From IMG/VR virus record IMGVR_UViG_3300015259_000009, positions 1-30,300 of that record: a DNA stretch of 30,300 nucleotides; one strand, given 5' to 3'. The notes under the pieces are model-generated. The model saw only the letters and a list, made by a program, of their open reading frames with translations. It made no database searches and had not been told where the DNA came from. The position numbers and the translations under genes were made by a program. Below, one piece after another: positions 3,736 through 28,490 of the stretch; position 1 is the first letter of the stretch, and every line of letters begins with the position of its first letter. This DNA comes from a virus. Its lineage: Duplodnaviria; Caudoviricetes.

Positions 3736-3920
3736 TGGCCGGTAAAGGCGATAGATACCGCCGTGTTGACTACAAGAAATGGAGCGAGAATTATGAGCGA
3801 GTCTTCGGGAAGCCCCAGCACGAATCCGAAGGATGCGATCGGCCGGAAAAAGCCGATGCTCCACCTGATTCCTCCGTCCGCCCTGATCCTCGAATCACTG
3901 GCGATGCGGAACGGGGCTGA
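3735..3920 (+). CDS. Small conserved-type phage hypothetical protein (MAGKGD...NYERVFGK)
   Basis: TAATG coupling and GGAG SD. The N-terminal ~27 aa resemble a recurrent tiny phage protein pattern (recalled); the 3' part overlaps the next gene. Confidence 0.6.
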   Translation: MAGKGDRYRRVDYKKWSENYERVFGKPQHESEGCDRPEKADAPPDSSVRPDPRITGDAERG

Positions 3921-10200: not shown

Positions 10201-11709
10201 CGCTGAAACCCACGATTCCGGCACCACGGCGGAGAAGGTCGCGGCACCCGGAGGCTGGCCTGCCGCACGGGCACGGGCCGCAGCCGCCAACAGGCGATGC
10301 CGCCCATCCTTAATTCGTAGCTTGCCCCCCTCCCCGGCCACTGCAATGACGGGAGGGAGGAGTTTATCCACCTGCTCGGGAGACAATTTCGCCAGAGACT
10401 CAACCTTCTGCTTGCTGAGGTTCTCAATCGGAATCTGATCGAAGTCATCGGGAGTGACGTTTATACGCACAAACTCGCCGGGCTCACTTTCGATTGCGTT
10501 CGAGATAGCGAATTTATCCGCCTGATCGTTGGGGATGGAGTCGATAATATCTGCTTTGCTCACGCGGGCAGGCTTAGCGGCAGGTTTCTCTGAAGTAGCA
10601 GTCTCACCATTAACCGTGACCGTGGTGGTACCGCCCACATTCGCATCCGCAATCTCCTGAGCTTTGGCCCGGGACTGCTCCTGCGTCATTTGCGGCCGAC
10701 CACCGGCATTTACCTTGCCGGACACACCGCCCAGAATCGGAGCGAGCCCGGCACCGTAGGCACCGGCCTTTGCAACCCCCTGAGAAAGCTCAGTCTCCGG
10801 AGCGATAGTCTGCTGGTTCACCACATTCTGAGCGAATTGGGTGACAGCCTCCTCGCCGCCTTCGGCCAGCATTTCAGGAGCAATTTTCTTAATCAGGGCC
10901 ATGATACCCGGAACACCCTGAGATCGGGCGACTTCCTGAAGGCCCGGGACACCCGCGAGCTTCTGCCCGATCCGACCGAAAATCTTGCCGCCGATATAGC
11001 CCGAGATTCCTTGGATAACTCCAGATCCCGCCGCAGCCGCAGCCTCTTGCCCCGTACTGATTTGCTGACCTTCGCCCCGACGTTCGGCCGTCTCTTGAAG
11101 AGAGCCGCCGATACCCTCCGCAGCCGCTTCAGCACCGAGACCGATAGCCCCGGTACCCGTGGCAATCATGGCAGCCGTCTTGCCGACAAGTCCAACAGCC
11201 TCGCCGACACCGCCAGCCACACCTTCGGGATCCCCGTAATATTCCCGGCTACGCTGCTTTAGCTTTGTAGCCGTCTCCGGGGCCACCAGCCCGACGAGGC
11301 TCTCACCCGTGCTACCCAGTGTGCGAAGCACACCGGCCGAATACTGCTCAGCCACGGAATTATCCGCAGAACCCCGGCGAATCTGCTCCTCACGGACTTC
11401 CCCGCCCTGCCGAAGCAGGGGAGGCAATCCGACTTGCCGCCGGTGCTGGTCAAGCAGGGCGATCTGGGCATCCACCGGCACATCAGGAAGACCCTGACGC
11501 CGAGCGTGGATCCGCAGTTGCTCAAGCTCCTGCAAAAATCCTTCCTCGTAATTAGGAACAACCGGGGCCGGAGCCACAGGAGCAGGGGCCGCAGATTGAA
11601 CGGGCTGAAATTCGGCCCACGGGTCTGCCGAAGGCGGAGCGGTAGGCTGAGGCGGCGTCACGCCCGGAGTCTTTACCATCTGGAATTCTGCCCACGGATC
11701 AACAGGCAT
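7237..11709 (-). CDS. Large internal virion / DNA ejection polyvalent protein (1490 aa) with ParB-like domain and LPD38-like C-terminal region
   Basis: Last of three genes after the tail genes. N-terminal DPWAEFQ x2; Gly/Ala-rich membrane-inserting region with EGGEEAVTQ; ParB-like PVIAV...IKDGRHRLLAA; WKASKTVYNPGTHVRNW and NYARV...PFVSF motifs typical of podophage ejection proteins. Confidence 0.82.
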   Translation of the reverse strand: MPVDPWAEFQMVKTPGVTPPQPTAPPSADPWAEFQPVQSAAPAPVAPAPVVPNYEEGFLQELEQLRIHARRQGLPDVPVDAQIALLDQHRRQVGLPPLLRQGGEVREEQIRRGSADNSVAEQYSAGVLRTLGSTGESLVGLVAPETATKLKQRSREYYGDPEGVAGGVGEAVGLVGKTAAMIATGTGAIGLGAEAAAEGIGGSLQETAERRGEGQQISTGQEAAAAAGSGVIQGISGYIGGKIFGRIGQKLAGVPGLQEVARSQGVPGIMALIKKIAPEMLAEGGEEAVTQFAQNVVNQQTIAPETELSQGVAKAGAYGAGLAPILGGVSGKVNAGGRPQMTQEQSRAKAQEIADANVGGTTTVTVNGETATSEKPAAKPARVSKADIIDSIPNDQADKFAISNAIESEPGEFVRINVTPDDFDQIPIENLSKQKVESLAKLSPEQVDKLLPPVIAVAGEGGKLRIKDGRHRLLAAAARARAAGQPPGAATFSAVVPESWVSAKQGVSPAGEVAKSPEMKKAGRGQPNEAVRSQAAEYLKASGVKAEPDVTDYVPVNPETGKKIADAYETAKHEPNNPEVKRAYDAFKQETKAQWDYLNKQGVKFEPWKGEGQPYGQNSWVNFGPKGEANRANPAKTQYAEQKATLLPAEFSAGGGGKPPVPPAGTNDEGLPGDAGEPSRPVGPGLGRRLFRGAASVFRDPTKGPLADLEKRIMQAKGKTSLTAMDADRVGKAFNQAAKDSAIDPNSADAHQIIEALLRGKGKPEGTSSDIAGWAAGARVQLDRESKNLAKKLREAGLPAQAKAVEDNLGTYLKNVPKETVSPTGRMKDWAKRKLALSPSFGKVKQDKFIVWDGKKPLKKFDTQEEANAFLDEQIKVRKEGLIKKAATERTPPVTEADLKRKAAKGLRLTDPISEEWRAEHEVHDPRYLVARSMIETRHNSEMIDLFKFAGERYGEQAPEDMSGEDIEAWAEDNGLEPLPESGRLHALKGVYVPKAVADRLKEHVRLPSEVERVYRAALSAWKASKTVYNPGTHVRNWLTNALVFSDLADTSPANPKNWPSYKKAVESMSKRDEIFRRAVEKGLIGNEYSSTELKAIQEAFRTNENVLDALFTAAGKAHRQVLKSYDVGDIIFKLATVHNNMRKGMDVDRSIADADEWYPNYARVAKITRFLRNTPVGAPFVSFFDQSARIAGRAVRRKPLKVAKIVAMPLMLEALSRAFIGFKEEEDKLVNAEKGASEFARMLTSPMVPFRDNDGRVMTLDLRSILPLANDLMPQARNGSTIIPWIFSGPLSNTVIEQLSGKERFTGRNFIREDMTTGEALQARGKRALDTLAPVPTALTYGRERVVRAAEGQSEESLGRAILGALGGVNIRTPYIAERVVKKVIQNMVGDREREGARSVLNEWNETYKPGDQPKLKMDNLVRGMRVSMKRSKHEARDKAAEAILAGDEAEAKRIIAEFNSDRPERLTELRLEDARRQSETFQRRGKER
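11605..11700 (-). repeat. Two copies of the DPWAEFQ peptide motif at the ejection protein N-terminus
   Basis: Copies at 11680-11700 and 11605-11625, separated by a Pro-rich spacer. Confidence 0.85.
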
Positions 11710-13522: not shown

Positions 13523-14728
13523 TTACGGGAGCGTCGTACCAATATCAGTGGTAGTCAAAACTCCGGTGTTTGAAACGGTGACTCGCCAATAGTGCGGTGT
13601 GGCCTGAGTGTCTTTGAGAATGAAGCCTTCGGCTGCGGCGTCAACGGCGACATATTTGGTGCCAATATGCTTGACATTGGAAGTAGTTTTTTGTAGTGCA
13701 TCGTCTACGACAAAAGCTGTGCTATTGCCAAAACCATGTAGAGTATCCCCGATCTTGCACGTTCCTAAAGGGACACTGACTTGAACGGCCGGAGTACCCA
13801 TATCAAAAATAGTGATAGCACATCCACCGTAGCTCCCATCTGAATCGCCAAGAAGTATGGTAGGAGCACCGGTAGTGCCGTTCTCGCCGGTCGTCATAGC
13901 GAAATTACCGGCACTATCCCTGATAACTAGCTGGTATTCACCGAGAGCAGACGATCCGACTACTAGGTGCCCAAATCCCGGATCTGCGGAATTTACTATG
14001 AGTCTGTTTTGAGCCAACAGATAGAGCAACCCTGAATCGGCTCCAAAAACTCCGCTATTATTGAATTGAACCTGAGTATTGGTCCCAGCGGGAGTCGCAG
14101 TGGCACTTGAACTAAGCACTGTGCCGGTCATTGTCAGACCAGTACCTAAAGTGATCTCTTCAAAATCACCTGCTCCTGCCGCTGAGCCACGCCCGACTAG
14201 ACGCGATGCGGCGGACGAGTTTTGCATCTTCGCAAATGTTACTACATCCGGGTCAATAGTCCAAATCGTTCCACTGCCAGAGACAGTGATATCTCCCTTA
14301 TCTCCGTCTGTAACCCCGACAACTGAGGTACTGAGGACGGTTCCTGTCATTGTCAGGCCAGCACCGAGCGTAATTTCCTGAAAATCTCCCGCCCCTGCTG
14401 CCGAACCACGCCCCACCAGCACCGATGCTGCGGATGAATTCTGCATTTTTGCGAACGTCACCACATCAGGGTCAATGGTCCACACCACTCCGCCACCGGA
14501 AACGGTGATATCCCCTCTATCACCGCTTGCAATCCGGAGACCGCCATCAGCAGGATCGAAGTCGAGCCCCGAAATGGTAGCCAAGAGTATAGAAATCGAA
14601 CTCGGATCGACGCCAAAAACGATGCCGTCTCCCTCGGTAATTCCGAGAACCCCAAAAGGATCTTGGCTCAGACGTTGAAGGGCTCGCCTTTGGCGAAGAT
14701 CCCCTTTACCGCCTTTGTCAACGCCCAT
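13523..14728 (-). CDS. Tail fibre / spike protein with internal tandem repeat
   Basis: GDKGDITVSG repeats, PAGTNTQVQFNNSGVFGADSGL fibre motif and C-terminal YWRVTVSNTGVLTT. GGAGAG SD supports ATG 14728. Confidence 0.82.
   Translation of the reverse strand: MGVDKGGKGDLRQRRALQRLSQDPFGVLGITEGDGIVFGVDPSSISILLATISGLDFDPADGGLRIASGDRGDITVSGGGVVWTIDPDVVTFAKMQNSSAASVLVGRGSAAGAGDFQEITLGAGLTMTGTVLSTSVVGVTDGDKGDITVSGSGTIWTIDPDVVTFAKMQNSSAASRLVGRGSAAGAGDFEEITLGTGLTMTGTVLSSSATATPAGTNTQVQFNNSGVFGADSGLLYLLAQNRLIVNSADPGFGHLVVGSSALGEYQLVIRDSAGNFAMTTGENGTTGAPTILLGDSDGSYGGCAITIFDMGTPAVQVSVPLGTCKIGDTLHGFGNSTAFVVDDALQKTTSNVKHIGTKYVAVDAAAEGFILKDTQATPHYWRVTVSNTGVLTTTDIGTTLP
14108..14524 (-). repeat. Two 66-aa tandem repeats (period 219 nt) in the tail fibre
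   Basis: Copies at 14327-14524 and 14108-14305; 58/66 aa identical by hand alignment, with many synonymous differences. Confidence 0.95.
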
Positions 14729-14729
14729 T

Positions 14730-17708
14730 TTAGCTCTCCGTGACTTCGCGGGCAGGCTTACCCGCACCTGAGAGATTTGCAGTCATGCTTTCCACAGCCC
14801 ACCTAGAGGCACCCGTATGTGAAAGCCCGATTTGTACCGCGTATCCACTGACTCGATTTCGTGCGGCCCTGTTTCTGCCAGCGTGAGAGAGCAATCGACG
14901 AACCCTAGGATTGGCTAGCATAGCACATTCCTCTGCGGATTGTCCGCTGAAAATCTCAAGATTTACTGGCCCACTACCACCGGCTAGAACGGGCAGAATT
15001 TCATTCAGCAAAACCTCTACGGCATGGCTCTCTGCGATGAAGGGAGCATAGCGAACCGAGCTTGCGATAGCCACGCCGTCATCATCTGCGGCCTCCTCAT
15101 CAATCATGCGGATATAGCTATCGTAGCAACCCATCAGAAATTCTTGATCGCTCGCGGCGGTGCCGTCATAGGCAAGCATACACGTCGGACCATACGCGGC
15201 AGGCCACGAATCCGACCACCATGCGTCGTTCCGCCGCTCCCAGAAGAACGACGTGTTCGCCACAGCCGGATTTATAGGAACGATTTGCACCATCAAGCCT
15301 TCGCGGATGTAGTCCCATTCCAGATATACCCTATTCTCATCCAGATTGACGCCTTGGAATCGAACATCGATCCGTCCCTTTGTTAAGCTCTCGGGCTTGC
15401 CGCCAAGGTTAAACTTGTAGATCCCATCAGTACCCATGAAATACAGAGTGCCATTCGGATCTTTGGTCCACGCCTTGCCGAAAGCGATGCCGGTCTTATC
15501 AGAGACGAGATCCACTGCTCCGCCTGCGGCGGGATCTCCCGTCATCTGCCAGATCGTATGATCGCCACCAAAGAGGAGAGCGTCGTCAGAGAAAGGGATC
15601 AGGGCAGTAATTATATCCCCGATTAGACCGACTTCGGAGTTATTACCCGCCACTGCCTTAATCGGATCATTAGCAGGAAGAGAGCCGTAGTCAAAATCGA
15701 ACGGATGCCCGACCCTAGACATGAACCAGTTATGAGGGTCGGATACGACACCAGAAAGTACCAGTCTGCCTCGGTACAAGCAGATTAGACGGGCACCCTG
15801 CTGAAGCGTGCCAGCCGTAGCAATCCAGTCCGTAATCGCATCGGTCTCGAAATTATACACCCTAGATCGCGTTCCATCGATCATAAAAACCTGATTGTAT
15901 GCAGGCTGAAACTGGATTACGTGCAGAGCCGACGACATGGCGTTGGCTCCGTTTGTGATGGTCAGAGCCGTGCCATTTCGCAGCCGAGAGATCGTCCCGC
16001 CCGAGGCTACAATCAGGGTACTCTCAGACGTGGGAGATGCTACCGCGAAATTAGCGTCCGGCCGCAATCGCCACCGAAGGATCTTGATGCCCGTGTCCGT
16101 GGTTGAGTCGCTGTGTTTCGGAGCGAGTCCGAATTGTGGATTTCCATTGAAAGTGGAGATGGTGTGAGCGACGATTAAGTGACCATCAATTGAAAGAGTG
16201 ATAGCCGTACCCGTGTCACTTATTCTAAAAACGGATTCTGAAGCAGACGTGTTTAGAGACAGGTTTGCAGTAGCCAACTGTGTTTGGACACCGTTAGTTA
16301 TGCTCCTGATGATCCAAGTGGCAAAGGCTTTCTGGTTAGACGTGCCCGACGTTACTGTACTCGGGCTAATGGACATATCGAATTCGATACCATTTGCAAA
16401 CGTAGCATCCACTCTCATCCAAGCCTTGACGCCGTTAGGTCCGGAACTTACGCCACGCTTCAGAGAAAAATCTACGTCAAAAGGTCCATCAGCAGCACTG
16501 GTACGAAAAAATCCAACGGCGGCTTCAGGAGTAGTATCTCCTCCCTTGAAGGATGCCGTGTCTGTAAACACAGACGACAATGGGTTTGGGTTCGTGTTGC
16601 TATCGTATGGGCCTACTTGAGAAGCCAGCACCCCGGCGGTTGTCCGACGAGCGGAAGTAAAACCTGATGGGATGAAATAGTCAAGAGTCCCGGCCTCGTT
16701 GTGCGAGATACTGTAACGGACGGCGGGCAGGACAGTGGTGATCGTGGAAAGCTGGATGTTCGTCACAATCCGCTTATTTACGGCATTCGCCCAGATCGCA
16801 TCTAGCCCAAATAACCCCACACCAGACCGGGTATCCCCTGCACTCAAGGCCGTGGTAACGGACAGGGTTTCATCCAGATTACTGCCGGATGCTCCGCCTC
16901 CCGCCCATTGAAGACGAGCAGTAAGTACATTACCTGATTCTGATAGAGACAGAATCATGTCGTTCTGTTCGACGGCTCCACCGTTCAGTGTAAGCGTCGG
17001 CCCCTCTGCCAAAATTACCGCGTTAGCAGTGAAGTTTACCTTTCTAAAAATCTGAAGTTTAACCGTAGTGTCAGTTGTGGCCCGAACGAGTCGAGCCCCG
17101 ATAAAGGTCAAGGTGTTGACGTTGCCTCGAATGAAAGGCCCCATACACTGACAGCTACTATTAGCAGTGCCAAAATCGCCACCATGATTGAAATTAGTGA
17201 CGGTGGCCTGCGGGGCAGCGAGAAAAGTGGCCGTAACACTGTTGGTGGTGGGTAAACGAGCCACCAGCAACCAGTATCGCATAGTGGTTCCGGCTCCGCC
17301 GAGGGAGAACCCGCTAGCGTGAATACCGATCCCGTTGCATGGATCATCCCCTCCGCCGCCTGCCCCGGTGCCCGCCCCGGATTCGGCGTTATGAGAGACC
17401 CAATTAGAGCCGAGGTCTGTGGGAGTGCCCACCACGCGATCGGCAGCCGAATCGCTGATACCCGCTGTGATAGTTGAGGCCACGCTCCTAACGGCTTTAG
17501 CCATCGCCTGAATAGGGTTTGAGCCGTTAATCTGATTAGGGAAAAACTTACTCAGACCCGCCCGGCGTCCGCCCCGCAGACGGTTTAGGAGGCAATCGAA
17601 ACCCCGCACGTTGGAGCCGTGCGACGTGGTTCCGGGCGGTTGAATGTCATAGCCCACGCTTTCGCTAAGGCCACGCACAGGGAACACTAGATTTTGAGAC
17701 TGACCCAT
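14730..17708 (-). CDS. Tail nozzle (tail tubular protein B / P22 gp10-like beta-propeller) with large inserted beta-rich region
   Basis: N-term FPVRGLSE...NVRGFD...RLRGGRRAG. Propeller blades LYRGRLVLSG, WFMSRVGHPFDFDY, IGDIITALIPFSDDALLFGG, LYFMGTDGIY. C-term VQIGLSHTGASRWAVE. Position after the adaptor. Confidence 0.82.
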   Translation of the reverse strand: MGQSQNLVFPVRGLSESVGYDIQPPGTTSHGSNVRGFDCLLNRLRGGRRAGLSKFFPNQINGSNPIQAMAKAVRSVASTITAGISDSAADRVVGTPTDLGSNWVSHNAESGAGTGAGGGGDDPCNGIGIHASGFSLGGAGTTMRYWLLVARLPTTNSVTATFLAAPQATVTNFNHGGDFGTANSSCQCMGPFIRGNVNTLTFIGARLVRATTDTTVKLQIFRKVNFTANAVILAEGPTLTLNGGAVEQNDMILSLSESGNVLTARLQWAGGGASGSNLDETLSVTTALSAGDTRSGVGLFGLDAIWANAVNKRIVTNIQLSTITTVLPAVRYSISHNEAGTLDYFIPSGFTSARRTTAGVLASQVGPYDSNTNPNPLSSVFTDTASFKGGDTTPEAAVGFFRTSAADGPFDVDFSLKRGVSSGPNGVKAWMRVDATFANGIEFDMSISPSTVTSGTSNQKAFATWIIRSITNGVQTQLATANLSLNTSASESVFRISDTGTAITLSIDGHLIVAHTISTFNGNPQFGLAPKHSDSTTDTGIKILRWRLRPDANFAVASPTSESTLIVASGGTISRLRNGTALTITNGANAMSSALHVIQFQPAYNQVFMIDGTRSRVYNFETDAITDWIATAGTLQQGARLICLYRGRLVLSGVVSDPHNWFMSRVGHPFDFDYGSLPANDPIKAVAGNNSEVGLIGDIITALIPFSDDALLFGGDHTIWQMTGDPAAGGAVDLVSDKTGIAFGKAWTKDPNGTLYFMGTDGIYKFNLGGKPESLTKGRIDVRFQGVNLDENRVYLEWDYIREGLMVQIVPINPAVANTSFFWERRNDAWWSDSWPAAYGPTCMLAYDGTAASDQEFLMGCYDSYIRMIDEEAADDDGVAIASSVRYAPFIAESHAVEVLLNEILPVLAGGSGPVNLEIFSGQSAEECAMLANPRVRRLLSHAGRNRAARNRVSGYAVQIGLSHTGASRWAVESMTANLSGAGKPAREVTES

Positions 17709-17729
17709 ATCTAAGCTCCCGAAGACTGA

Positions 17730-18953
17730 TTAGCGAAGGGCAACCTGAGCGGCGTCGTACTGATTGTAGGAGACCAGTGTAGAGTGATAGGCGACCCCGA
17801 CAGCCAGCAACTCGATCTCATCGACCGGGTGAGCCTCGGATGTGAGCGTAAACTGGACTTGCTGATCCCGGGTCAATCCCTGACCCTTGAAGAAAATCTC
17901 GATGATGCGTGCCGTGGCACTCAGATCATCGGATGGAGAACCAGAATCCGCGACCATAGCGACCGCAGCCCCTCCAACCGGCCTACGCGAGCCGGAAGCC
18001 GAGAGGGTCGGCGTGTCGGTGGATCCGGTCATTTTCGCAGCGATGCGAAGAACGATGATATCCGTCGCCTCGTCGTAATCACGAGGCACCATCCAACCAA
18101 CGGTCGCAACGGCCGATCCGCCGCCACCGCCGGACTGCGAAGCTCCGGTAACGGTGCCCACGTTGGCGTCCAACGTGATCGCTCCGGTACGAGCCAGAAG
18201 TCTGCCGACGAAGGTAGCCGCAGTCACCAGCGTAATGCTAGCCTGTGCAAGAATGTTGCCTTGGAAATCCGTGGTACTGCCGAGAGTAGCAGAGCTACCA
18301 ACCTGCCAAATGACATTACCCGCACTTGCACTGTTAATCAGATCAACGACTGAAGCACTTGCGGTCGTGAGTGTACTGCCGATCTGAAACACCCAGCTAG
18401 CGTTCGGATCACCGCCGCCGTCAAGCGTGAGCGTTCCCGTCAATTGGGCAGATGAGGAGAAGGAATACACACCCGGCCCGAGAACGAGCCCGCCAAGATC
18501 AATCCCCGTCAAATCCTGTGTAGGCTCCAACGCCTGTGCCTGAAGATACGCAGCAGTAAGGGCGACCTGAGCCGCAGCCGCAGTACCGTTGGCAACATGC
18601 TGCGTACCGCTCACAGTACCCGGGGGGAAACCAACGACAGAGGAACCCGGGCTGAGACCCAGATCCCCAGTAAGCACGGTTGCCCCCGTACTCTCAATCG
18701 TGGATGAGGCCAGAACAACGAAGTTTCCGAGAGCCGCAAGAGAGACAAAGGTATCTTCCACGGTCACAGCCGGGAAACCCCCTTCGTCCAGTCCAAACGT
18801 AGCACCAGCAGCGAGAGGAAGGCTGTCCAACAGCTTCCAGTCATCCACCAGAAATCCTGAGTCAAGCACAGACTCACCATGAGGGGACGTTCGACCGCCC
18901 CCCATAACCGTGTGCTTCACATGCGTCAAAAAATTGTCGGGACCAAAAAGCAT
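17730..18953 (-). CDS. Virion structural protein carrying an inserted DUF3494 (IBP-1) ice-binding domain
   Basis: aa ~69-267 match DUF3494: FVVLASSTI, TGDLGLSPGSSVVGFPPG, AQVALTAAY, LGGLVLGPGVY, LTLDGGGDPNASWVFQIGSTLTT, NVIWQVGSSATLG, FQGNILAQASITL, GRLLARTGAITLD. No signal peptide; AGGAG SD; lies between adaptor and nozzle genes. Confidence 0.9.
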   Translation of the reverse strand: MLFGPDNFLTHVKHTVMGGGRTSPHGESVLDSGFLVDDWKLLDSLPLAAGATFGLDEGGFPAVTVEDTFVSLAALGNFVVLASSTIESTGATVLTGDLGLSPGSSVVGFPPGTVSGTQHVANGTAAAAQVALTAAYLQAQALEPTQDLTGIDLGGLVLGPGVYSFSSSAQLTGTLTLDGGGDPNASWVFQIGSTLTTASASVVDLINSASAGNVIWQVGSSATLGSTTDFQGNILAQASITLVTAATFVGRLLARTGAITLDANVGTVTGASQSGGGGGSAVATVGWMVPRDYDEATDIIVLRIAAKMTGSTDTPTLSASGSRRPVGGAAVAMVADSGSPSDDLSATARIIEIFFKGQGLTRDQQVQFTLTSEAHPVDEIELLAVGVAYHSTLVSYNQYDAAQVALR

Positions 18954-18969
18954 TGCTCATCTCCTATTT

Positions 18970-20019
18970 CTACGGGTTGTAAATCACATTGGGTCGTACG
19001 TACATGAAATCACGGAAATTGCGGATATTCCAGCCATACCAGCCGTGCCGAGGACCGTTGCCGAAATACCCTAATTTCCGTGGACCAGACCGACTATCCA
19101 CCCTAATGCTGTTGTCTAAGCATTTGACGTAGTACGCCATATCTGGCCCAGAAACTTCATCTACATCTTTTTCCACTATAGCTCGACAAGCAGCCCGCAA
19201 GGATTCATCGTGCATAATCGGAGTAGGTGGTACTTCTGCACCGCTCGTAAGCTCATCAAAATGTAGGTCGTAGGGAAGTTGAATGATGAATACTTGATCG
19301 GGCGTTGGATACGCCATCAGCTTGTATCGACGCCTAGCACTGGCCGGGGGAACGCTGAATGCCGGGAGGAACACATCGATCGCCAGCAGCCGAGGAATGC
19401 TGATGGAGCTAGTGCTATTATTCTCCCGAAGTTGACGGATGGTGACTTCATGGGTCCATTCCAACATCGCTGCCCTGTTCGTCTGCGACAAAAAAGTTGG
19501 CGTACCCCCGAGGGCTCCCGCAAACGTTCGAGGTAGCGTGTAATCTCCGTTCGCCGCGATGCTGTACGTGGATGCGACAAACGTGTGGTTGCCGTAGACA
19601 TGGACTACAGTGGAAGAGATATACTGCTTAACCGTGAAGGTGCCCTGTCCCGTGACAACGATCTCTTTCTCTTCCATAGACGGGAAAAAGACGGCTGAAT
19701 TCGCCGTAACAGGGGTGTAATCATCGGCAGGAACGTGGGCACCACCGACGACTGTTTTAGCCGCGTCTACTACTATACTAGGCCACAGCGTAATATCTGC
19801 TACGGGCTTCGTCCACCGCCACCCACTCGGCGGGGCGTCAGAAATGAACATCCTGAGAGCATCGTTTACGTGCCGCTTGGCTTCTGCCAAATCATGCGTA
19901 TCAATAGGAATGCTAGCAGGTGCGTCACCATTAACCCCGTAGTACGCCACGCCCATCTTTAGAGCCACTTCCAGAATCAAGTCGTTAAACGTTAATGCGG
20001 ACGTAGCTTCGACGGACAT
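18970..20019 (-). CDS. Head-tail adaptor (tail tubular protein A-like)
   Basis: LTFNDLILEV...KRHVNDALRMF...WRW...DYTLPRTF...LMAYPTPDQVFIIQLPY pattern; first gene after the capsid block. Confidence 0.75.
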   Translation of the reverse strand: MSVEATSALTFNDLILEVALKMGVAYYGVNGDAPASIPIDTHDLAEAKRHVNDALRMFISDAPPSGWRWTKPVADITLWPSIVVDAAKTVVGGAHVPADDYTPVTANSAVFFPSMEEKEIVVTGQGTFTVKQYISSTVVHVYGNHTFVASTYSIAANGDYTLPRTFAGALGGTPTFLSQTNRAAMLEWTHEVTIRQLRENNSTSSISIPRLLAIDVFLPAFSVPPASARRRYKLMAYPTPDQVFIIQLPYDLHFDELTSGAEVPPTPIMHDESLRAACRAIVEKDVDEVSGPDMAYYVKCLDNSIRVDSRSGPRKLGYFGNGPRHGWYGWNIRNFRDFMYVRPNVIYNP

Positions 20020-20030
20020 TCGTGGCTCCT

Positions 20031-20063
20031 TAAATCAGTGGTACCCAATTAAAGGTACCACTG
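20031..20063 (-). terminator. Hairpin after the capsid/decoration genes, probable leaky terminator
   Basis: Perfect 10-bp stem CAGTGGTACC (20036-20045) / GGTACCACTG (20054-20063) with an 8-nt loop, followed on the - strand by ATTT and the AAGGAG SD of the adaptor gene. Confidence 0.65.
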
Positions 20064-20088
20064 CAATCCTCATAGAGAGGAGATGATT

Positions 20089-20928
20089 CTACCGACCATC
20101 CTCGTACGCACCACGAACCCAGTCAAACGTCATGGTTCGAGCCGCAGCCCCGCCAGTCTTGATCGCAAGCACGAAGGCCATGTTCACGTTGTCAGGAAAA
20201 GCGTTGTTGTCAGGAGAATTGGCCGGACCGATCAGGTGAGAACGCACCTTGATGCCGTCCACGAAAATCTGAATCTGATCTCGACCGTCAAATTTCAGAC
20301 CGAATTTCCGCTCCGTATTGGCGACAAGGCGGGCTGCCCCTGAACCGAGCACCGAGGAGAAGTTGGCATCCGCGAGAATATCCGTTCTCACGCCCGCGTC
20401 CAGCTTGAACACAGCATCGATATCGTCCTGATCGCCCGTGAGCAGAGCGAAACCGAGGAGAGACTCCCCGATCAGATCAGCCACGTTATCAGCGATAATA
20501 TCGCGGCTCAGGGCCGCCTCTTCGGCGAGACCGAAGAATGCCCCCTGATCGACATTCACCGCACCAAACTCCAAACGGGCCTCAAACCAGACCTTATTGC
20601 CGGAGTTGAGAACAATCTTCGCGGCAGGCTGCGTATACGCAGCAACCGCGTCGTTATCGGTAGCACCCGTCACAAGGCTCTGATAGCCGTCGAATTCACC
20701 TGCCTTGTGGGGAATCGTACTCACGTCCCCATCAAGCGTCATCTGAAAATGCCCGCCAAACGGCCCGCCGTCTGCGAACACTTCCGTTCCACCCGTGAAA
20801 TCCTCATGGAAATAGATTCCACGCCCCTCCTCGTTCAGTCGCTCACCGGGGCAATCCTTCCAAATACTGTCCGAGGGCCGGACTGCCTCCCCAGCCTGAG
20901 AGAAGCTAACCACGCTAGAAGTACCCAT
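20089..20928 (-). CDS. Putative capsid decoration / minor capsid protein (beta-sandwich)
   Basis: Immediately downstream of MCP with AGGAG SD. Beta-rich acidic sequence (FHEDF, VWFEAR, FGLKFDG, MTFDWVR) of ConA-like appearance. Confidence 0.6.
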   Translation of the reverse strand: MGTSSVVSFSQAGEAVRPSDSIWKDCPGERLNEEGRGIYFHEDFTGGTEVFADGGPFGGHFQMTLDGDVSTIPHKAGEFDGYQSLVTGATDNDAVAAYTQPAAKIVLNSGNKVWFEARLEFGAVNVDQGAFFGLAEEAALSRDIIADNVADLIGESLLGFALLTGDQDDIDAVFKLDAGVRTDILADANFSSVLGSGAARLVANTERKFGLKFDGRDQIQIFVDGIKVRSHLIGPANSPDNNAFPDNVNMAFVLAIKTGGAAARTMTFDWVRGAYEDGR

Positions 20929-20970
20929 CTATATCTCCTACAAGTCGTTTTTGCGTTTGAACAGCCGCTA

Positions 20971-22059
20971 TTAGGCGGCAGGAATGGCGAGATGAAGAGC
21001 CCAACCGGCCGTGCGACGGTTGATGCACAGATTGTTGTGGCAGGCATCAACGAACACCGTGATAACCGTATGCTGGGATTTGTCCATCATCGGCTTGCCC
21101 TCGACCATCCAGTAACCGTCCTGCACAATCGGCTGAATCTTCGACCAGTCCACGCAGTAAATGGGCTGCTCAGTCACACCGTCAAGCTGAGGAATGTAGA
21201 CGACGGGCCGACGATTGAAAAAGGTTGCCCCCTCCACATCCACCAGCACCTTGCCCGCGAGATCCTTGGGCGTATTCTGGTCATCTCGCTTATCAGCGAG
21301 ATCCATGAATTCGACTGCCCGATCAGCGTCACAGTAAATCTTCACAGTGCTGCCCGGCTGATCGTTGCCCGGGGCCTTCACCATCTGAGGCGGCTTGAAC
21401 CGAGTCAGAAGCATGGCTTTACGCATCTTCCGGAGAAGGGCATTATCCACCTTCACATACACGTCGGCATAATTCCGCCACTTCGCCTCAATCGCACCGT
21501 CCAGCCCCGCGACAACAGTGCCCGTGCTACCGTCCTGATAGCGGACCGTCTTACCGAGGAAGCCCCCGGCCGTGACGCCGTTATCGAGAAAATTCAGGTA
21601 GTACGGAATACCGTAGGGATAGAGTTTGTCGGATGCCGAAGTCGGGGTTTTCCAACCGCGATCCTCGATCAACTCGGCAAGACCCCACAGCCGCTCCATC
21701 TTTCGGCTCTCAAGCAGGTCGATGTAGCCCTTGGCGGAATTCTTATTCCGCATGATCTCAAGCACGTCCCAAGAGTAGTCCGTGCCAAGCTGAGTCCAAG
21801 GAACATCAATCTGCTTCTGGATGTTGTCCACCGAAGGCTGGTCGGTATCGAACAGCTTGCGGTAGCGAGCATTACCCTGTTCGTCCAGAACCACGTTACG
21901 CTGGATGCTGGTACCCCCGTCGACCTTTCGACGCTGGGAATTGTAGATGTTACAGAACTCGAAAGCCTGCGAATCCCACATCACTTCATACGTATCCTTC
22001 GGCAGATCCTTCAGCGTAGTTGCCACCAGATCCAGAAGGGCGTCATTGTCAACTGCCAT
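20971..22059 (-). CDS. Major capsid protein (HK97 fold)
   Basis: 362 aa; follows the scaffold; LVATTL...VDGGTSIQRNVV...IDVPW pattern of P22-like phage MCPs; GGGAG SD. Confidence 0.85.
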   Translation of the reverse strand: MAVDNDALLDLVATTLKDLPKDTYEVMWDSQAFEFCNIYNSQRRKVDGGTSIQRNVVLDEQGNARYRKLFDTDQPSVDNIQKQIDVPWTQLGTDYSWDVLEIMRNKNSAKGYIDLLESRKMERLWGLAELIEDRGWKTPTSASDKLYPYGIPYYLNFLDNGVTAGGFLGKTVRYQDGSTGTVVAGLDGAIEAKWRNYADVYVKVDNALLRKMRKAMLLTRFKPPQMVKAPGNDQPGSTVKIYCDADRAVEFMDLADKRDDQNTPKDLAGKVLVDVEGATFFNRRPVVYIPQLDGVTEQPIYCVDWSKIQPIVQDGYWMVEGKPMMDKSQHTVITVFVDACHNNLCINRRTAGWALHLAIPAA

Positions 22060-22086
22060 TTCTTGCTCCCATCAAATCCACAAGAA

Positions 22087-23217
22087 TTAAGAACCAAAGA
22101 TGCCAGCAAGGCTGCTCTTTACCCGAGCCTCAAGCTCAGGCCGGGTCGGAGCCCCGGTCTTTGTAGCCTTGCCGCCCTTGGAGGGCCGAAGCGAAACACT
22201 GTTGCCACGCTTCTCAACTTTGCTCTTAATTTCCTCGCGGACTGCTTGCGTTTTGAACCCGATGCTCACGCTATCGTGAGCCATCAACATAGCCTCATTG
22301 AAGCTCAGCTTTCTGTGCTGCATTGAAGCACCAGCCATCAAAGCATCCGCCATTTCGAGAACCTTATTCCGGCTCTCAATTTGCTCATCCGTGGCCGTCT
22401 TGCCATCCTTGCCGTACATTTTCTCGTACGACTTCAGATCCTTGCCACCGAAGAACCCGTCAATTTGACGAGCCAGATTATCCGTCTTGGATTGCTTGAT
22501 TGACTGAACCCCGGACATGAGATCAGGAAGAAGTGCATTCACTTGCTTCAAAAGCTCATTGACCGGCTCGGTGATCTGCCGGACCAGATCCTCATTACCG
22601 AATTTCTCCACCATCCCGTCAACGTCCAGAGGCTTAAACAACCCCTTTTCATCGAGATGCTTGGGCCGATCGACCGTCTTGGCGGGCTGATCCTCATTCT
22701 CCTGCTCGGGCCGCGAAGCCCGACCCATCTCCGCCCACTTCGCAAGCTCGGCGTTCCGGTTGGCGTGAATTCTCTGAGCCGTCAGCGTGAAATTCACGGG
22801 GTCGGACTTCAGGGCGGCATCAATATCCGCATCACTCCAATCGTACGCCTTCAATGAACGCCGGTAAGAATCAGGGAGGGTAGGCCCTTTACGCTTAGGC
22901 TGGGGCTGCTCCGCTTCCTCTTTCGGCTCATCTTCTGACTCATCCTCTGAGGGCTTGTTATCCCCATCGGCGGGCTCGTCATCCGGAGCAGGATCATTTG
23001 AGTCATCTGTGGGGGACTCGGCATCCGCCACAGGCTCCTCAATTTCCGGCTCTGGCTCCGAATCCCGGGTACCCGTCTCGCTGGCCCGAAGGGCGGCGAG
23101 CCCCTTCTCAACCTTAGAAACGAGCGTAGCCCGATCCACCGCCGGAGCGGGAGGAGCGGGCGAATCTGCCTCGACGGCATCACTACCCGAAGTCACGGTG
23201 CTTTCGTCAACTGCCAT
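22087..23217 (-). CDS. Capsid scaffolding protein
   Basis: Very acidic disordered N-third, helical middle and basic C-terminus; directly upstream of MCP; AAGGGAG SD supports ATG 23217. Confidence 0.8.
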   Translation of the reverse strand: MAVDESTVTSGSDAVEADSPAPPAPAVDRATLVSKVEKGLAALRASETGTRDSEPEPEIEEPVADAESPTDDSNDPAPDDEPADGDNKPSEDESEDEPKEEAEQPQPKRKGPTLPDSYRRSLKAYDWSDADIDAALKSDPVNFTLTAQRIHANRNAELAKWAEMGRASRPEQENEDQPAKTVDRPKHLDEKGLFKPLDVDGMVEKFGNEDLVRQITEPVNELLKQVNALLPDLMSGVQSIKQSKTDNLARQIDGFFGGKDLKSYEKMYGKDGKTATDEQIESRNKVLEMADALMAGASMQHRKLSFNEAMLMAHDSVSIGFKTQAVREEIKSKVEKRGNSVSLRPSKGGKATKTGAPTRPELEARVKSSLAGIFGS

Positions 23218-23231
23218 AATTACGGTCTCCC

Positions 23232-23264
23232 TTGGGGCTGCCGCGAATAGCGGGGTAGGCCCAA
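23232..23264 (-). promoter_or_regulatory. Structured 5' leader hairpin abutting the scaffold SD
   Basis: - strand TTGGGCCTACCCCGCTATTCGCGGCAGCCCCAA: outer TTGGG/CCCAA and inner CCGC/GCGG stems; the SD begins at the stem base. Confidence 0.5.
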
Positions 23265-23274
23265 CGAGCATCTA

Positions 23275-23302
23275 AGTATACCTCACATCCACAAGAATGC
23301 AA
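23275..23302 (-). promoter_or_regulatory. Sigma70-like promoter upstream of the scaffold-capsid genes
   Basis: - strand TTGCAT-N16-TATACT in the longest intergenic gap of the virion arm. Confidence 0.65.
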
Positions 23303-23309
23303 GGAAACT

Positions 23310-23657
23310 TCAGTTTGTTTCCACGAATCCTTCGGCCTTCAGAATCCGGAGCTTCTCAGAACGCGAGGTAGCGATAGGGACACCGAAATTCCTGTCTCGC
23401 CTATCGCCGGAGATTTCAACTCCGGGATTTCGCTTGCGAAACTCATCAATCTCATCTTCGTTATCCAAGGCAATTGAGAGCATCTCAATAGGCTTGGTTC
23501 CGCTTCCTTCGCCGTACTTGGTTCTCACATTCGGCCTCTGAATGGTCTTTTCACACGGACGCCCATCCTTCATAGTTAAAGCATCTGCGTGTATAGACTG
23601 AACCTCCGTGAAGGCCCCGCCCGGCTCATCAATGAAGCGATAGTCATACAGAGGCAT
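23310..23657 (-). CDS. FmdB-family-like small protein lacking the Zn-ribbon cysteines
   Basis: MPLYDY...FTEVQSIHADALT matches the FmdB start pattern but has no CxxC pairs; GAGGAG SD. Confidence 0.65.
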   Translation of the reverse strand: MPLYDYRFIDEPGGAFTEVQSIHADALTMKDGRPCEKTIQRPNVRTKYGEGSGTKPIEMLSIALDNEDEIDEFRKRNPGVEISGDRRDRNFGVPIATSRSEKLRILKAEGFVETN

Positions 23658-23667
23658 GGGTTTCTCC

Positions 23668-23880
23668 TCAATAATCCGGGAACGCCTTTTTCAAACCGTG
23701 AGACGCTTTCTTTTCCATCCGCTTGCGTTTCACTTTTCGGTCATATTCCTTGCCGTTAAGCTCGGGCTCCCCAGACTTACGCTGCGAATTGTAAACCTTC
23801 GCAGCTTTAGTCTGAGCCGCATCCTCACTAAGACCGGCTTTCTTGAATTTGCCCTTCATTGCCAGATACTTTGCAGGCAT
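23668..23880 (-). CDS. Small basic protein (70 aa) downstream of portal
   Basis: ATG 23880 lies 1 nt after the portal stop; MPAKYLAMK...AQTKAAKVYNSQRK, Lys-rich. Confidence 0.7.
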   Translation of the reverse strand: MPAKYLAMKGKFKKAGLSEDAAQTKAAKVYNSQRKSGEPELNGKEYDRKVKRKRMEKKASHGLKKAFPDY

Positions 23881-23881
23881 T

Positions 23882-25735
23882 TTAATACCCCTGACGCACG
23901 GGCAAGTCAGCCTGCCCCGGGGCGGCTCCCTGCTGTGCAAACGACCGCTGCTCCTGTTCCGGGGTCTGCATAGCCCCCACGCCCGGCGGCTGGCCGTTCT
24001 GGGCCATCTCTGGCCCAAGACCGCCCGGGGCTGCCTGCCCCTTGGATTCGCCCATCTGCGGGCCGCGAGCCGCAAGTTGCATCATCTGAGCCTGAAACTC
24101 CGGATCGAAGAATACTTCGTCCATCCACGTAATCCCCGACTCTTTAGCCATACGAGTGATAAAGCGGGGGAACGAGAATGCCACGCCCATCATCGCACAC
24201 GTCTGAGCCGCTGTCGCCGCAGCCGGAAGAATCTTAACTGCAAATTCAACCGCCTGAGTCATCCGCTTCACCCGATCGGTGCGACCCATCGATTCAGGCG
24301 TAATCGTGAAAGCGAAGTCGAGGAAATCACCGCATCGAGCCTCGGGCGTCAAGAAAACTTGAAGCTCCTTCTCCTGCGGGGGCTGAATCATCATGCCGCC
24401 AGAATACTGAGCAGGAATATGCACTCTGCGGATCATCGGAACTTCAAGCAATGGATCAGTGTGCAGATACCATGCACGCTTGCGAGCCTCTTCGGATGCA
24501 CCGCAATAAACCAGATCCTTCATATCGTCCTGAGTAATCTGGGCATTGCCCTGAAGAATATTTGCCTCGGATGCAGTCTTGGCGTTCATGGAGATCCCGG
24601 CCATACCCTCGGGATTACCGGCCATCATATTGAACCACATCTGAAGTTGCTGGATATGAGCCTCATTGGACGGCTGCTGCCCACCAAATGAGAAGGTCTT
24701 GACCCCATCCGGATCCTGCATGGCAATTGCCTCGCCATCGCCAGCTTCCAAGGCATCTTGGGCATCGTCAGCGGCAGACGGCTTGTAACCAACAATATCC
24801 TTCTGTCGATCGGCCTGCTCCATGACTTTCTTCACCATCTTATTTGCGGCAAGGTGAAGATCATGCCAGATACCGACCATCGAGATCGGGAGCGGATTAT
24901 TCGGCACCGGGGGCGTCAGTCGCAGATACGTGTACGGCCCGCTGTCATCACCGTACGCATCATGGGTCCGGAGGAATTTATCCGTCCTGAATCCACCCCC
25001 GGCCGGGATCGTGACGATCGCCTTAGCCCGGGGAACCCACAATTCCCACACCGCGACCTTATCCTCAAGATCGCCGGTCTCAGAGTAATTGATGTTTTTG
25101 GCGGACAGCCTTTCAGCCCGATCGTAGTCGGCGGGCTCTCCGTTAGAACGCGGCATACGCTCAACTATATCGTTGGCGTATTTGCCTGAGTCCAGCAAGA
25201 GGCTCCGTGAAATCTCGATCCGATCGCCGATGAAGAGAGCGTCGTCAATCTGCTTGGCGTTGGGGTCGAACACGAAATTGTCGAAGTCCACGTTGTCCGT
25301 ATAAACGGTACCGGGATCGATCCGATCATCAGGATTAAATCCGATCACCGAACCTGAATCGCAAAGCCCTGTCTTCAGAATTCCGATTTGGAAGATAGCA
25401 TCCACAATCCAGCGACGGTAGATATCCCGCATCTTCAGCTTTCGATCCTGCTGAGAGAGGGCCATCCCAATCATGTCGCCATAATTGCGATACGCCAAGA
25501 ATTGTGATCCGACCACATGCTCAGGATAGTTAAAGACGAGGCTGGGGACCAGCACACGAATCGCGTTGAAAATCAGATTCAACGGTTCGCTACCAATATT
25601 GCCGTGGGCGGCGTCGTAGTATTGCCCCACGAATTGCCGGAGAAACATCAGGCGAGAAGCACGGAACATCTGAAGCCGCTTCACGCCGTTCTCAACGGCC
25701 TCGTTCAGCTTTTGGGGTGAGATTTCGGTCGGCAT
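23882..25735 (-). CDS. Portal protein (P22-like)
   Basis: 617 aa directly after TerL; NLIFNAIRVLVPSL, GIGILKTG-like turn (QIGILKTG), FVFDPNA, TASEANILQ and Q/G/P-rich C-terminal tail. Confidence 0.88.
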   Translation of the reverse strand: MPTEISPQKLNEAVENGVKRLQMFRASRLMFLRQFVGQYYDAAHGNIGSEPLNLIFNAIRVLVPSLVFNYPEHVVGSQFLAYRNYGDMIGMALSQQDRKLKMRDIYRRWIVDAIFQIGILKTGLCDSGSVIGFNPDDRIDPGTVYTDNVDFDNFVFDPNAKQIDDALFIGDRIEISRSLLLDSGKYANDIVERMPRSNGEPADYDRAERLSAKNINYSETGDLEDKVAVWELWVPRAKAIVTIPAGGGFRTDKFLRTHDAYGDDSGPYTYLRLTPPVPNNPLPISMVGIWHDLHLAANKMVKKVMEQADRQKDIVGYKPSAADDAQDALEAGDGEAIAMQDPDGVKTFSFGGQQPSNEAHIQQLQMWFNMMAGNPEGMAGISMNAKTASEANILQGNAQITQDDMKDLVYCGASEEARKRAWYLHTDPLLEVPMIRRVHIPAQYSGGMMIQPPQEKELQVFLTPEARCGDFLDFAFTITPESMGRTDRVKRMTQAVEFAVKILPAAATAAQTCAMMGVAFSFPRFITRMAKESGITWMDEVFFDPEFQAQMMQLAARGPQMGESKGQAAPGGLGPEMAQNGQPPGVGAMQTPEQEQRSFAQQGAAPGQADLPVRQGY

Positions 25736-25744
25736 GGCTAATCC

Positions 25745-27628
25745 TTAACGGAAATCGAAGGTCTTTCCAGCAGCAACGGCTTTCTTGGCTTTCATCCACG
25801 CAGCCTTACGACCACCGATGGATTTGTGAGGGGCCTTGGGGCCTTGCGATTTGGCCTTGGGCACATCTCCGCAACCCCATAGAGCTAGGGCGTCCCCAAT
25901 CACGCGGTCCCCGTGAACCTTGCGGGCGGCTGCGGTCTCCGCGACTAACGCCGCAGGGCCGAGCCCGCCGTCCGGCAGGCGGACGTAAAGCAACGCCTCA
26001 TCCAGAGCTTCAAATGAAGGATTGATAAATCCGCCGTGAGCCAAAGCACGACGATAGTGCCCAAACACGACTTCTTTCTTATCCGTATTAGAATTCCAGC
26101 CGTATCGCTTTGAGGCTTTCTCATTGATGGTTCCCACGGCCTTATCGATGAAGTAGTACGGATATTGGAATTTCTTGACTACCTCGCGGCCGAAATCCCA
26201 GCCGGGACCGTTAGCCTCCCAAATCATCAACGGTCTGCCGCCGTTGGACGCTCCACCCACCCACATAGCAATAGCACAGGCGATGCGAGCGAAATCGTAG
26301 GGAGGCGTGTTGGCATCAGCCCATTCACCGACCTTTTCCCCGGTCTCTTTGCAGAAGACGGTAAGCGTTGAATTAGATGCTCCCTGACCTTTGGACACGT
26401 CGATCCCGAGAACATAATTCTTCGTCTGATCGAGACGGCCGCTGATAAGATGGACCCACAATCGGAGAGGGCCGGTTGGGCTGATCTGGAGAAATTCACG
26501 CTGTTTGCGGAGAAGAATGGCAGGGATCGCATCGAGAGACACCTTTTTTCGGAAGTCGATTGCTCGACTGCACATTTCCTTGCGGCCGAACATCCGCTTG
26601 TGTTCCTCAATGATGTGACCCTCAAAGAATACTTCGCCAGATCCGATATGATCCATGTCGATTTCTTGGGCCATCTCTTGAGGAGACCGCCTCGCCGACT
26701 CCTCGATATACCACGGTGATTTGATTCGGTATTTGCCGGTACTCGTATCCTGCTCAACAAACCGACCGCGACCCTTCTCAGGATGCTCGTACCACGGCAG
26801 GACAAAAACCTTGATCTGACCGGACATACGCCATTTGGAATAGGTTGTGCCCGGCCCCCACGGAGTCGAATTGACGAGACGGCACGCTGACACGTCGCGG
26901 GTAGCTGCTTTAATCTTCTCCGCGTTCTCCATCTTGGCAAACTCATCCATCAGGAGAGCGTGCCGCCGGTCGCCTGAGCCTGCCGCCTTATTGCTGGATT
27001 CGCCGTCGATGCGGGAACCATTATCCTTATTGATAATGTGCATCCGCGTCCGCTCGATCCGAGGCAGCATCCACTCAGGCAACCACCGATTTATATAGTC
27101 ATGCTTGACGAACAAGCAACGGGGATTGTCCGCACCGTCCACGTCGGTCTCGACGCGGGACATTTCAAGGAAAAGTCTATCAGGGCGGAAAAGCCACTGA
27201 TGGTGGAGCGTGACGATGTGATTCCACGAAGCACCCATCTCACGGGTTTTATCCGTGAGAAGGTCGTAGCCCCCATCAATTGCCTTCTCGATCTCCAAGA
27301 TGTGTTTGTCTTGAATTTCCCATGTCACGAAGGGCAGATGTTGATTCTCAGCCTGCCGAGCCTTGCCTGCTTCATCGACTTCCTTCACGACGAAGGTAAA
27401 GGCAAAAGCGTTAATCCAAAAAAGAATGGATTGCTTGCAGGCGGTATACAGATCAATTTGAAGCTGCTCATCCTCTTCAGCCTCACGAAGCAGCTTCACT
27501 CGCCATTCTAGATTCTTGTCTGGATCCTTGGGCACATATAGTCCGGTGGTTGGACAACGCCATAACTCCGGCACCGAAGGGAACGGTGCCGGAAGCTCCG
27601 GCTTCACCATGTATGTGCCAGCGGCCAA
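25745..27628 (-). CDS. terL: Terminase large subunit
   Basis: Walker A DKTREMGASW, Walker B LLMDEFA, coupling motif NSTP, nuclease LGIDVSKG...WEANGPG...HGDRVIGDAL. Start is either TTG 27628 (after AGGAG) or ATG 27610. Confidence 0.95.
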   Translation of the reverse strand: MAAGTYMVKPELPAPFPSVPELWRCPTTGLYVPKDPDKNLEWRVKLLREAEEDEQLQIDLYTACKQSILFWINAFAFTFVVKEVDEAGKARQAENQHLPFVTWEIQDKHILEIEKAIDGGYDLLTDKTREMGASWNHIVTLHHQWLFRPDRLFLEMSRVETDVDGADNPRCLFVKHDYINRWLPEWMLPRIERTRMHIINKDNGSRIDGESSNKAAGSGDRRHALLMDEFAKMENAEKIKAATRDVSACRLVNSTPWGPGTTYSKWRMSGQIKVFVLPWYEHPEKGRGRFVEQDTSTGKYRIKSPWYIEESARRSPQEMAQEIDMDHIGSGEVFFEGHIIEEHKRMFGRKEMCSRAIDFRKKVSLDAIPAILLRKQREFLQISPTGPLRLWVHLISGRLDQTKNYVLGIDVSKGQGASNSTLTVFCKETGEKVGEWADANTPPYDFARIACAIAMWVGGASNGGRPLMIWEANGPGWDFGREVVKKFQYPYYFIDKAVGTINEKASKRYGWNSNTDKKEVVFGHYRRALAHGGFINPSFEALDEALLYVRLPDGGLGPAALVAETAAARKVHGDRVIGDALALWGCGDVPKAKSQGPKAPHKSIGGRKAAWMKAKKAVAAGKTFDFR

Positions 27629-27629
27629 A

Positions 27630-28022
27630 TTACTCCTGTTTCTTTTTCGGCAGTTTTGGTGGAAGAGTCTTTTTCGTAGCTCCTGCACCAGCCATTGCGT
27701 TTATACGGTTGCGGTTGAGATCCGACACTTTCTCGGCCGCACTGATCTTCCCACCCTCTTCGCCTGCGGAGGGGGCGACTTTGCCTTCCAGACGCTCATA
27801 GATCAACTGAATCGCCCATGATTCAGGAGTATGGATAATCTGTTTGACCTTGCCATCATCGCCCCGGCGATCTTCGACATATCCAAGGGCCTTCATCCAC
27901 AGGAGTTTAGCCAGAGCTTCGGCCTTAGTGACCGTATCGCCCTCATCGGAGAGCGTCTGAGCCTCAGCGGCAATCTGCCGGAGGAATTTGGTAAGCTCTT
28001 TTCCTGTGAAACGAGGAATCAC
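27630..28022 (-). CDS. terS: Terminase small subunit
   Basis: 130-aa helical protein immediately upstream of TerL; TKAEALAKLLWMKALG...AIQLIYERLEGK motif. Confidence 0.75.
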   Translation of the reverse strand: MIPRFTGKELTKFLRQIAAEAQTLSDEGDTVTKAEALAKLLWMKALGYVEDRRGDDGKVKQIIHTPESWAIQLIYERLEGKVAPSAGEEGGKISAAEKVSDLNRNRINAMAGAGATKKTLPPKLPKKKQE

Positions 28023-28415: not shown

Positions 28416-28490
28416 ATTTATTCTCCACCAGCCGGACAGAATTTTGAGAGCCCAGAAAAGGTCTTTTTCAGTGAATTGAACGCCCATGTA

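Follow-up and report, generated by a model that had tools for sequence, protein, structure and literature searches.

A DUF3494 domain inserted in a loop of a putative virion protein of an uncultured phage, one case of a mobile candidate ice-binding module

Tailed-phage particles carry swappable Ig-like or CBM decoration domains (e.g. T4 Hoc), which are thought to aid weak surface binding, and the assumption is that the accessory domains of phages bind hosts or mucus. Hoc-type domains are glycan-binding beta-sandwiches, whereas DUF3494, the insert described here, is a beta-solenoid whose known ligand is ice and whose two ends lie on the same side of the fold. The solved structures closest to our domain are EfcIBP (6EIO, E 4e-45), 5UYT and AnpIBP (7BWX, E 2e-38). 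EfcIBP and AnpIBP are free cell proteins, AnpIBP being secreted, and Tyr mutants of AnpIBP S153 and T156 retain 17% of activity (PMC7277481, in the part available). In Shewanella SfIBP_1 (6BG8, E 2e-25 to our domain) DUF3494 is joined to beta-sandwich domains, and tethered DUF3494 adhesins with Ig-like stalks are suspected of ice adhesion (PMC11645318, in part). A signal peptide is usual in DUF3494 proteins according to the available part of the same source, and is missing in many single-domain members (PMC9957290, in part). Viruses enter this literature through three Arctic vOTUs with PF11999 genes, interpreted as host-cryoprotection AMGs in a paper that also cites a Southern Ocean viral antifreeze protein (PMC11515562, in part); the available part of it makes no mention of virion display or loop insertion. 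The corresponding parts of PMC11645318 and PMC9957290 do not mention phages or viruses, and those of PMC10970483 and PMC10796529 add nothing on virions. In the literature searched, which covered few subscription papers, we found no virion-displayed DUF3494 or other ice-binding domain.

The locus that we compare with these systems lies in a window of 30,300 nucleotides, a linear virus record (IMGVR_UViG_3300015259_000009) scored as 63% complete by CheckV. Genes on its minus strand run in the order terminase, portal, scaffold-like gene, major head protein, 279-aa gene, 349-aa gene, gene X, 992-aa tail protein and three candidate ejection-type genes, where the roles of genes without a family label are assigned from position. 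The portal matches Pfam SU10_portal (E 6e-10), the terminase also has a family match, and the family match of the major head protein is weak (E 1e-3). The features that we refer to below are:

20089..27688, minus strand: head block upstream, with terminase, portal, scaffold-like gene, major head protein and 279-aa gene (Pfam/PHROG, synteny)
18970..20019, minus strand: 349-aa gene upstream of X, putatively adaptor-like by position (synteny in 19/19 loci)
18961..18965, minus strand: RBS AGGAG, 7 nt before the ATG of gene X (read from the sequence)
17730..18953, minus strand: gene X, 407 aa, predicted jelly-roll protein encoded in the head-tail block and interrupted by a DUF3494 domain (ORF, Pfam, relatives, synteny)
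18759..18953, minus strand: carrier N-part, aa 1-65, conserved N-terminal helix and first predicted jelly-roll strands (8 insert-free relatives; model)
18735..18758, minus strand: short entry linker, aa 66-73, junction placed to within about 10 residues either way (alignment)
18156..18734, minus strand: complete DUF3494/PF11999 beta-solenoid, aa 74-266 (PF11999 E 7.8e-58; matches to 6EIO and 7BWX)
18693..18695, minus strand: E87, first rung of the Thr ladder (domain alignment)
18285..18296, minus strand: S220 and T223, equivalent to AnpIBP S153 and T156, centre of the B (ice-binding) face (7BWX/7BWY alignments; PMC7277481)
18114..18155, minus strand: exit linker, aa 267-280, with a Gly/Ser run at its end (sequence, alignment)
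17733..18113, minus strand: carrier C-part, aa 281-407, remaining predicted jelly roll and conserved C-terminal tail (43-54% identity to 8 relatives; model)
14730..17708, minus strand: 992-aa tail protein downstream, putatively nozzle-like, with a variable middle of ~480 aa (PHROG 376)

An earlier note on this DNA had placed a complete DUF3494 domain at 18153-18749 and described four Thr/Ser rungs, a Gly/Ser linker and the absence of a signal peptide, and all of these readings hold. The PF11999 profile search covers aa 80-265 of X, in agreement with that extent (profile 1-206 of 208, 196 bits against a cut-off of 28.7), and a domain-specific HMM widens the domain to aa 75-266; the record holds no other PF11999 match. 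The rungs and the linker (aa 272-280) are both found in the translation, which starts at an ATG, and a crude hydrophobicity heuristic detects no N-terminal leader (best 12-residue mean 1.31). No promoter or terminator stood out above chance. Like EfcIBP and AnpIBP, X has a match over the full length of the domain, aligned B-face rungs and both S153/T156 equivalents; unlike them, it lacks a leader, sits within a phage protein loop and carries a Glu on the first rung. The tethered adhesins are tandem-domain proteins with a signal peptide on a cell, in contrast to the nested arrangement on a virus protein in X. X therefore differs from the secreted DUF3494 type, yet falls within the domain family, and it shares with the Arctic viral genes the presence of PF11999 in a phage genome.

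The two flanks of the domain belong to a single protein. When aa 278-407 were used as a query among shorter proteins, 8 of 81 candidates matched (195-215 aa). These insert-free relatives match both flanks and have the counterparts of aa 1-65 and aa 281-407 of X joined directly. The ~210-aa insert takes the place of a ~5-residue loop between two predicted strands, with the junctions again placed to within about 10 residues. A model of an insert-free member (pLDDT 72.2, both termini below 50) comprises an N-terminal helix and strands, and its core of ~196 aa is, as modelled, a CBM-like, galactose-binding-like jelly roll. Fold search related this modelled core to Cry4Ba domain III (1W99; Z 12.4, rmsd 2.9, 135 aligned), the CBM BT0996-C (7ZVO; Z 12.3, rmsd 2.7, 128 aligned) and the HFTV1 tail protein (9H4P; Z 10.7, rmsd 3.4, 138 aligned), all at 8-10% identity and among many tied matches, so that they indicate a common fold only. 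Relatives, model and fold search together bear out the earlier suggestion that the flanks form one beta-sandwich protein interrupted by a true loop insertion, and we regard the insertion itself as practically certain. The monomer prediction that had been proposed succeeded for the insert-free core, which folds as a jelly roll, but the model of full-length X is too poor to speak to co-folding of the flanks (pLDDT 54.7, pTM 0.37, N-part below 50; fold-search matches weak and split). The termini of the core are both its most conserved and its worst predicted segments, and we therefore read them as likely partner-binding segments.

X belongs to a large, previously unnamed phage family with insert-tolerant loops, for which a profile search (E up to 0.001) recovered 258 representatives. 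PF11999 was found in 0 of the 150 relatives scanned (of 157), so the domain is dispensable in this family; the same 150 gave sub-threshold matches to BclA_C in two and Ig in one, and no CBM Pfam match. A family N-terminal signature is present in 92 of 158 proteins, 46 of these 92 carry inserts of at least 15 aa, and in 35 of the 46, X included, the insert lies in the N-proximal region. Most inserts begin near residue 45, which puts them one loop ahead of the insertion site in X; this placement rests on MAFFT alignments, as hmmalign pooled long inserts at one state and a PSSM was too noisy. DNA alignment to the related locus L001 likewise misplaces the N-part of X. The inserts near residue 45 are BclA_C/TNF-like, long helical repeats or a ~110-aa sandwich (P0032, P0047, P0039; L011:2332-3408; P0011, P0028, P0034), and the TNF-like and helical ones hint that X may be a trimer. 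Some proteins (P0115, P0121, P0130, P0044, P0157) contain the jelly roll two or three times in tandem or have it after other N-terminal domains, which suggests that the carrier fold is itself a mobile module.

We considered whether the fusion could be an assembly chimera that joins a cellular ice-binding gene to one of a phage. Positions 14500-22100 lie in a single contig, with 0 differences, in each of two DNA runs whose label is freshwater sediment, and the identity to locus L100 is 100% over 10,369 bp; since the runs and L100 may be the source of this DNA, they demonstrate reproducible assembly and not independent occurrence. The check for a chimera at the junctions that the note had advised was made on contigs, one of which spans both junctions identically in each of the two runs. 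In favour of a chimera, a second independent genome with this fusion was not found. Against it, both junctions are in frame and the flanks collinear with the insert-free relatives, the fusion is identical in three assemblies (possibly of one source), a repeat pair at the junctions that would point to a mobile element is absent, and the nearest relatives of the domain are also inserts without signal peptides (see below). We consider a chimera extremely improbable. The domain resembles its flanks in base and codon-end composition (GC3 0.56), which suggests long residence.

The note had treated the insertion in X as a single event. That view did not survive, and X is one case of a module inserted in many unrelated phage structural proteins. 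A domain search scored 8,000 candidates and returned 7,767 matches. Among the best 120 of these 7,767, 22 were labelled leaderless inserts (by eye and by heuristic), the four most identical domains (69-72%) are all leaderless inserts, and the insert carriers are mostly classed as putative viral only; one carrier, P0237, agrees in length and N-terminus with an ORF of viral locus L021. Scanning viral contigs for the domain confirmed 132 of 167 stretches, from which 79 loci were kept with 89 domain-bearing ORFs, which fall in 28 groups by their flanks. Scans that used a single C-part or a single domain as the query returned nothing from the viral contigs, and alignments were needed; an Atlas search with the N-part of P0211 gave no match. 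By the heuristic, a hydrophobic leader is missing in 82 of the 89 ORFs. PF11999 was found in all 39 that were scanned, of which ten match tail-category PHROGs (sheath 3, fibre 2, baseplate wedge 1, other tail 4) and 29 carry no such label; as judged by eye, several of those without a label are preceded by a gene whose size and position resemble those of a capsid gene. In homologous sheath proteins the domain follows residue 69 in L074 and residue ~167 in L026 and L042 (flanks 49% identical, E 2e-13), and P0231 and P0251 likewise hold it at differing sites, which implies repeated insertion. Domain-free twins of other carriers were rare within the fetched loci (4 of 112, one of them collinear, in L067) because the loci had been chosen for having the domain.

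The domain tree is consistent with exchange among phages. From 267 near-full domains, picked by likeness to the query, we kept 149 rows (92 phage-type and 57 secreted-type, labels assigned partly by eye) after leaving out rows of unclear type and near-copies above 85% identity. X groups with P0211, P0216 and P0240 (SH-aLRT 95), all three putative viral only, inside a 59-row group of signal-peptide-free inserts without a secreted member (SH-aLRT 94, just below the tool's starred level). The type label changes 11 times on the tree, compared with 45.8 times in shuffles (0/500 shuffles as low). One common origin for the 92 phage-type rows is neither rejected by the data (p-AU 0.42) nor shown by them. 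The simplest reading of the tree is that the domain of X would have come from another phage.

Some loci carry more than one copy of the domain. Two separate domain genes lie within 12 kb of each other in ten viral loci (L030, L034, L040, L048, L063, L066, L068, L071, L080 and L089); in L089 the pair is one gene split by a stop, and several ORFs hold two domain copies. The DUF3494 match is split in two in L050:4297-7155, L084:5686-7185, L091:5476-7155 and L070:2782-9645, as would fit either another insertion within the domain or a reordering of its parts; the profile start comes after its end in L050.

Whether X is part of the particle was approached through its neighbours. All 19 viral loci have a 349-aa gene homologue as the immediate upstream neighbour of X, and 18 of the 19 have a 992-aa gene homologue downstream, in one case separated from X by an extra 158-aa ORF; in the nineteenth the contig ends downstream of X. 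Twelve more metagenome loci have the same order wherever they are long enough, and plus-strand ORFs of all 31 X-family loci contain no DUF3494. The note had put X between an adaptor and a nozzle in a morphogenesis operon; the position is indeed fixed, but both labels are weak. The 349-aa gene has no Pfam, PHROG or PDB match of its own, and 2 of 15 of its homologues match virion or tail PHROGs at E<0.01, while the 992-aa protein matches PHROG 376 'tail protein' at E 2e-4, as do 5 of 12 homologues. X itself has no sequence match in PDB or PHROG, the best among 21 family members tested being a PHROG match at E 0.05 in one, and the structural matches of its core are to a generic fold. Its nearest three Atlas clusters are 81-98% viral, with a recognition score that the tool grades weak. 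We found no relative of the X core, the head protein, the DUF3494 domain, P0211 or P0217 among 50,697 GenBank phage records, and no cultured phage or prophage relative of X; the core has no relative in GTDB genomes either, and for this reason no host is called. The phage is uncultured and probably short-tailed.

The nozzle-like protein varies at about aa 77-555: the closest relative, L001, whose head protein is 86% identical, aligns to no more of it than aa 4-76, and this middle may be a second swappable display site adjoining gene X. A 414-aa gene at 13523-14767 on the minus strand has two DUF5907 repeats, varies among relatives and is probably a fibre-like virion protein. The 1490-aa ejection-type protein at 7237-11709, minus strand, contains a short ParB-like match (aa 424-487, E 4e-4) and a weak match to the virion RNA polymerase family (E 9e-4).

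X could instead be an assembly helper or a soluble product, with the domain acting in or around the host, for example in AMG-type cryoprotection. No library gives X a structural name, viral PF11999 genes have been given a role in protecting the host from cold (PMC11515562, in part), and some single-domain DUF3494 proteins lack signal peptides (PMC9957290, in part). This reading fits poorly with the fixed place of X inside the head-tail block, with insertion into a loop instead of a free gene, with the same module inside sheath, baseplate and fibre proteins, and with the absence of an export signal by a crude heuristic, and we consider it unlikely. Display on the virion is what the neighbours and the related inserts point to, and we hold it to be quite probable. 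In our best reading, X is a scaffold that displays a swappable adhesion domain on the virion. Like Hoc-type decoration, the domain would be an optional adhesion module shuffled among structural genes; it is itself a known one, likely put to use here as an exchangeable decoration of the particle, on a carrier family that had no name before.

The flat face of the domain bears on what it may bind. The X domain aligns almost without gaps to 6EIO and 7BWX; the full-length model is of low confidence in this region (pLDDT 54.7). S153 and T156 of AnpIBP, on B-face rungs (PMC7277481, in part), map to S220 and T223 of X. At the outward B-face positions of X (columns 1, 2 and 4), 16 of 18 residues are G/A/S/T/V, the exceptions being E87 and a family-common Gln. 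Among the 58 other members of its group, the 18 outward B-face positions have a mean entropy of 0.76 bits and are 96% G/A/S/T/V, compared with 1.91 bits and 71% at 10 outward C-face positions, which were assigned from the rung pattern (B vs C p 0.0004). Secreted copies show the same trend (1.08 bits for the B face vs 2.52 for the C face), so the conservation may partly reflect the fold. Constraint on this face in unrelated carriers is as expected for one unchanging ligand, but does not thereby name the ligand.

In X this face has changed at one edge. Thr occupies the position of E87 in 96% of 91 phage-type and 93% of 57 secreted copies, and no acidic residue is found in the five-rung ladder of any of the 58 other group members; E87 is free of variants in two assemblies. 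X departs from the conserved columns at 6 of 52, where 51 of the 58 depart at 5 or fewer, and its B-face changes at the edge of the first rung are Thr to Glu 87, Asn to Ser 88 and Thr to Val 107. The copy in X is slightly eroded. These three changes, the absence of the domain from all 150 relatives and an end branch of 0.26 (0.11 for the nearest row) could mean that the domain is a tolerated passenger that recombined into a permissive loop and now drifts with little benefit in this lineage. The reading frame and full length are intact, however, 46 of the 52 conserved columns are kept, including the central S220 and T223, and GC3 and codon endings are like those of the flanks, which makes a passenger improbable.

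A retained, displayed domain could still have a ligand other than ice, such as a mineral, cellulose or chitin, a biofilm polysaccharide, a host surface layer or another ordered hydrated surface. The habitat is sediment, PF11999 is common in ice-free environments, lake sediment included, and DUF3494 has also been described in substrate-binding proteins (PMC12337378, in part). The carrier itself has a predicted CBM-like fold, its relatives swap in other adhesion-type inserts, and Glu87 may suit a polar ligand better than ice. On the other side, the B face is built of small residues, Thr-laddered and of low entropy across unrelated carriers, unlike a host-tracking receptor-binding tip, and the closest solved relatives are ice binders. 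A displayed domain with a ligand other than ice is to us a rather unlikely account; ice would be the likeliest single ligand. We put a rough probability of 0.4 on the main reading, that the domain of X is displayed on the particle and that ice is the ligand for which it was selected. The earlier note had advised looking up the sample habitat: the record gives freshwater sediment, but no temperature. One metatranscriptome contains scattered short contigs of this region in 14 of 30 bins, one bin falling inside the domain; as DNA may be present, these contigs do not show transcription.

We propose that X is a minor structural protein of the phage, in which the conserved N-terminal helix and C-terminal tail of the core probably dock on the neck or tail hub. 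Across the X family, N-proximal loops of the core tolerate inserts, and in-frame recombination would have set a whole DUF3494 domain into one of them in this lineage, its source probably being a structural gene of another phage, as the tree suggests. Short linkers would suspend the domain from the core and leave its flat Thr/Ser B face exposed, and with several copies per particle the phage could adhere avidly and reversibly to a hydrated surface that is flat and does not change. If ice is the ligand, particles may be held at the ice-water interfaces of seasonally frozen sediment, near hosts, or may alternatively benefit from limited freeze damage. More broadly, and tentatively, tailed phages of sediment and soil may share a mobile pool of DUF3494 domains that are grafted into tolerant virion loops of sheath, baseplate, fibre, neck or hub proteins and make ice-binding particles. 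Such an adhesion system would target an abiotic crystal and not a host, and would govern where phages are located and how they survive freezing and thawing. A virion domain selected for ice or another abiotic surface would represent a new class of phage environmental adaptation, and some viral 'antifreeze AMGs' would then be structural inserts and not host-protection genes.

Elsewhere in the window, two adjacent look-alike proteins of 153 and 126 aa lie upstream of the terminase (28026-28487 and 28491-28871, minus strand); they have no family match and appear as a tandem duplication. On the plus strand, 3763-4830 encodes a fusion of a dATP/dGTP diphosphohydrolase domain with DUF4406, which adjoins a MazG-like ORF (assigned by eye) and a metallophosphoesterase, apparently a nucleotide-pool module.
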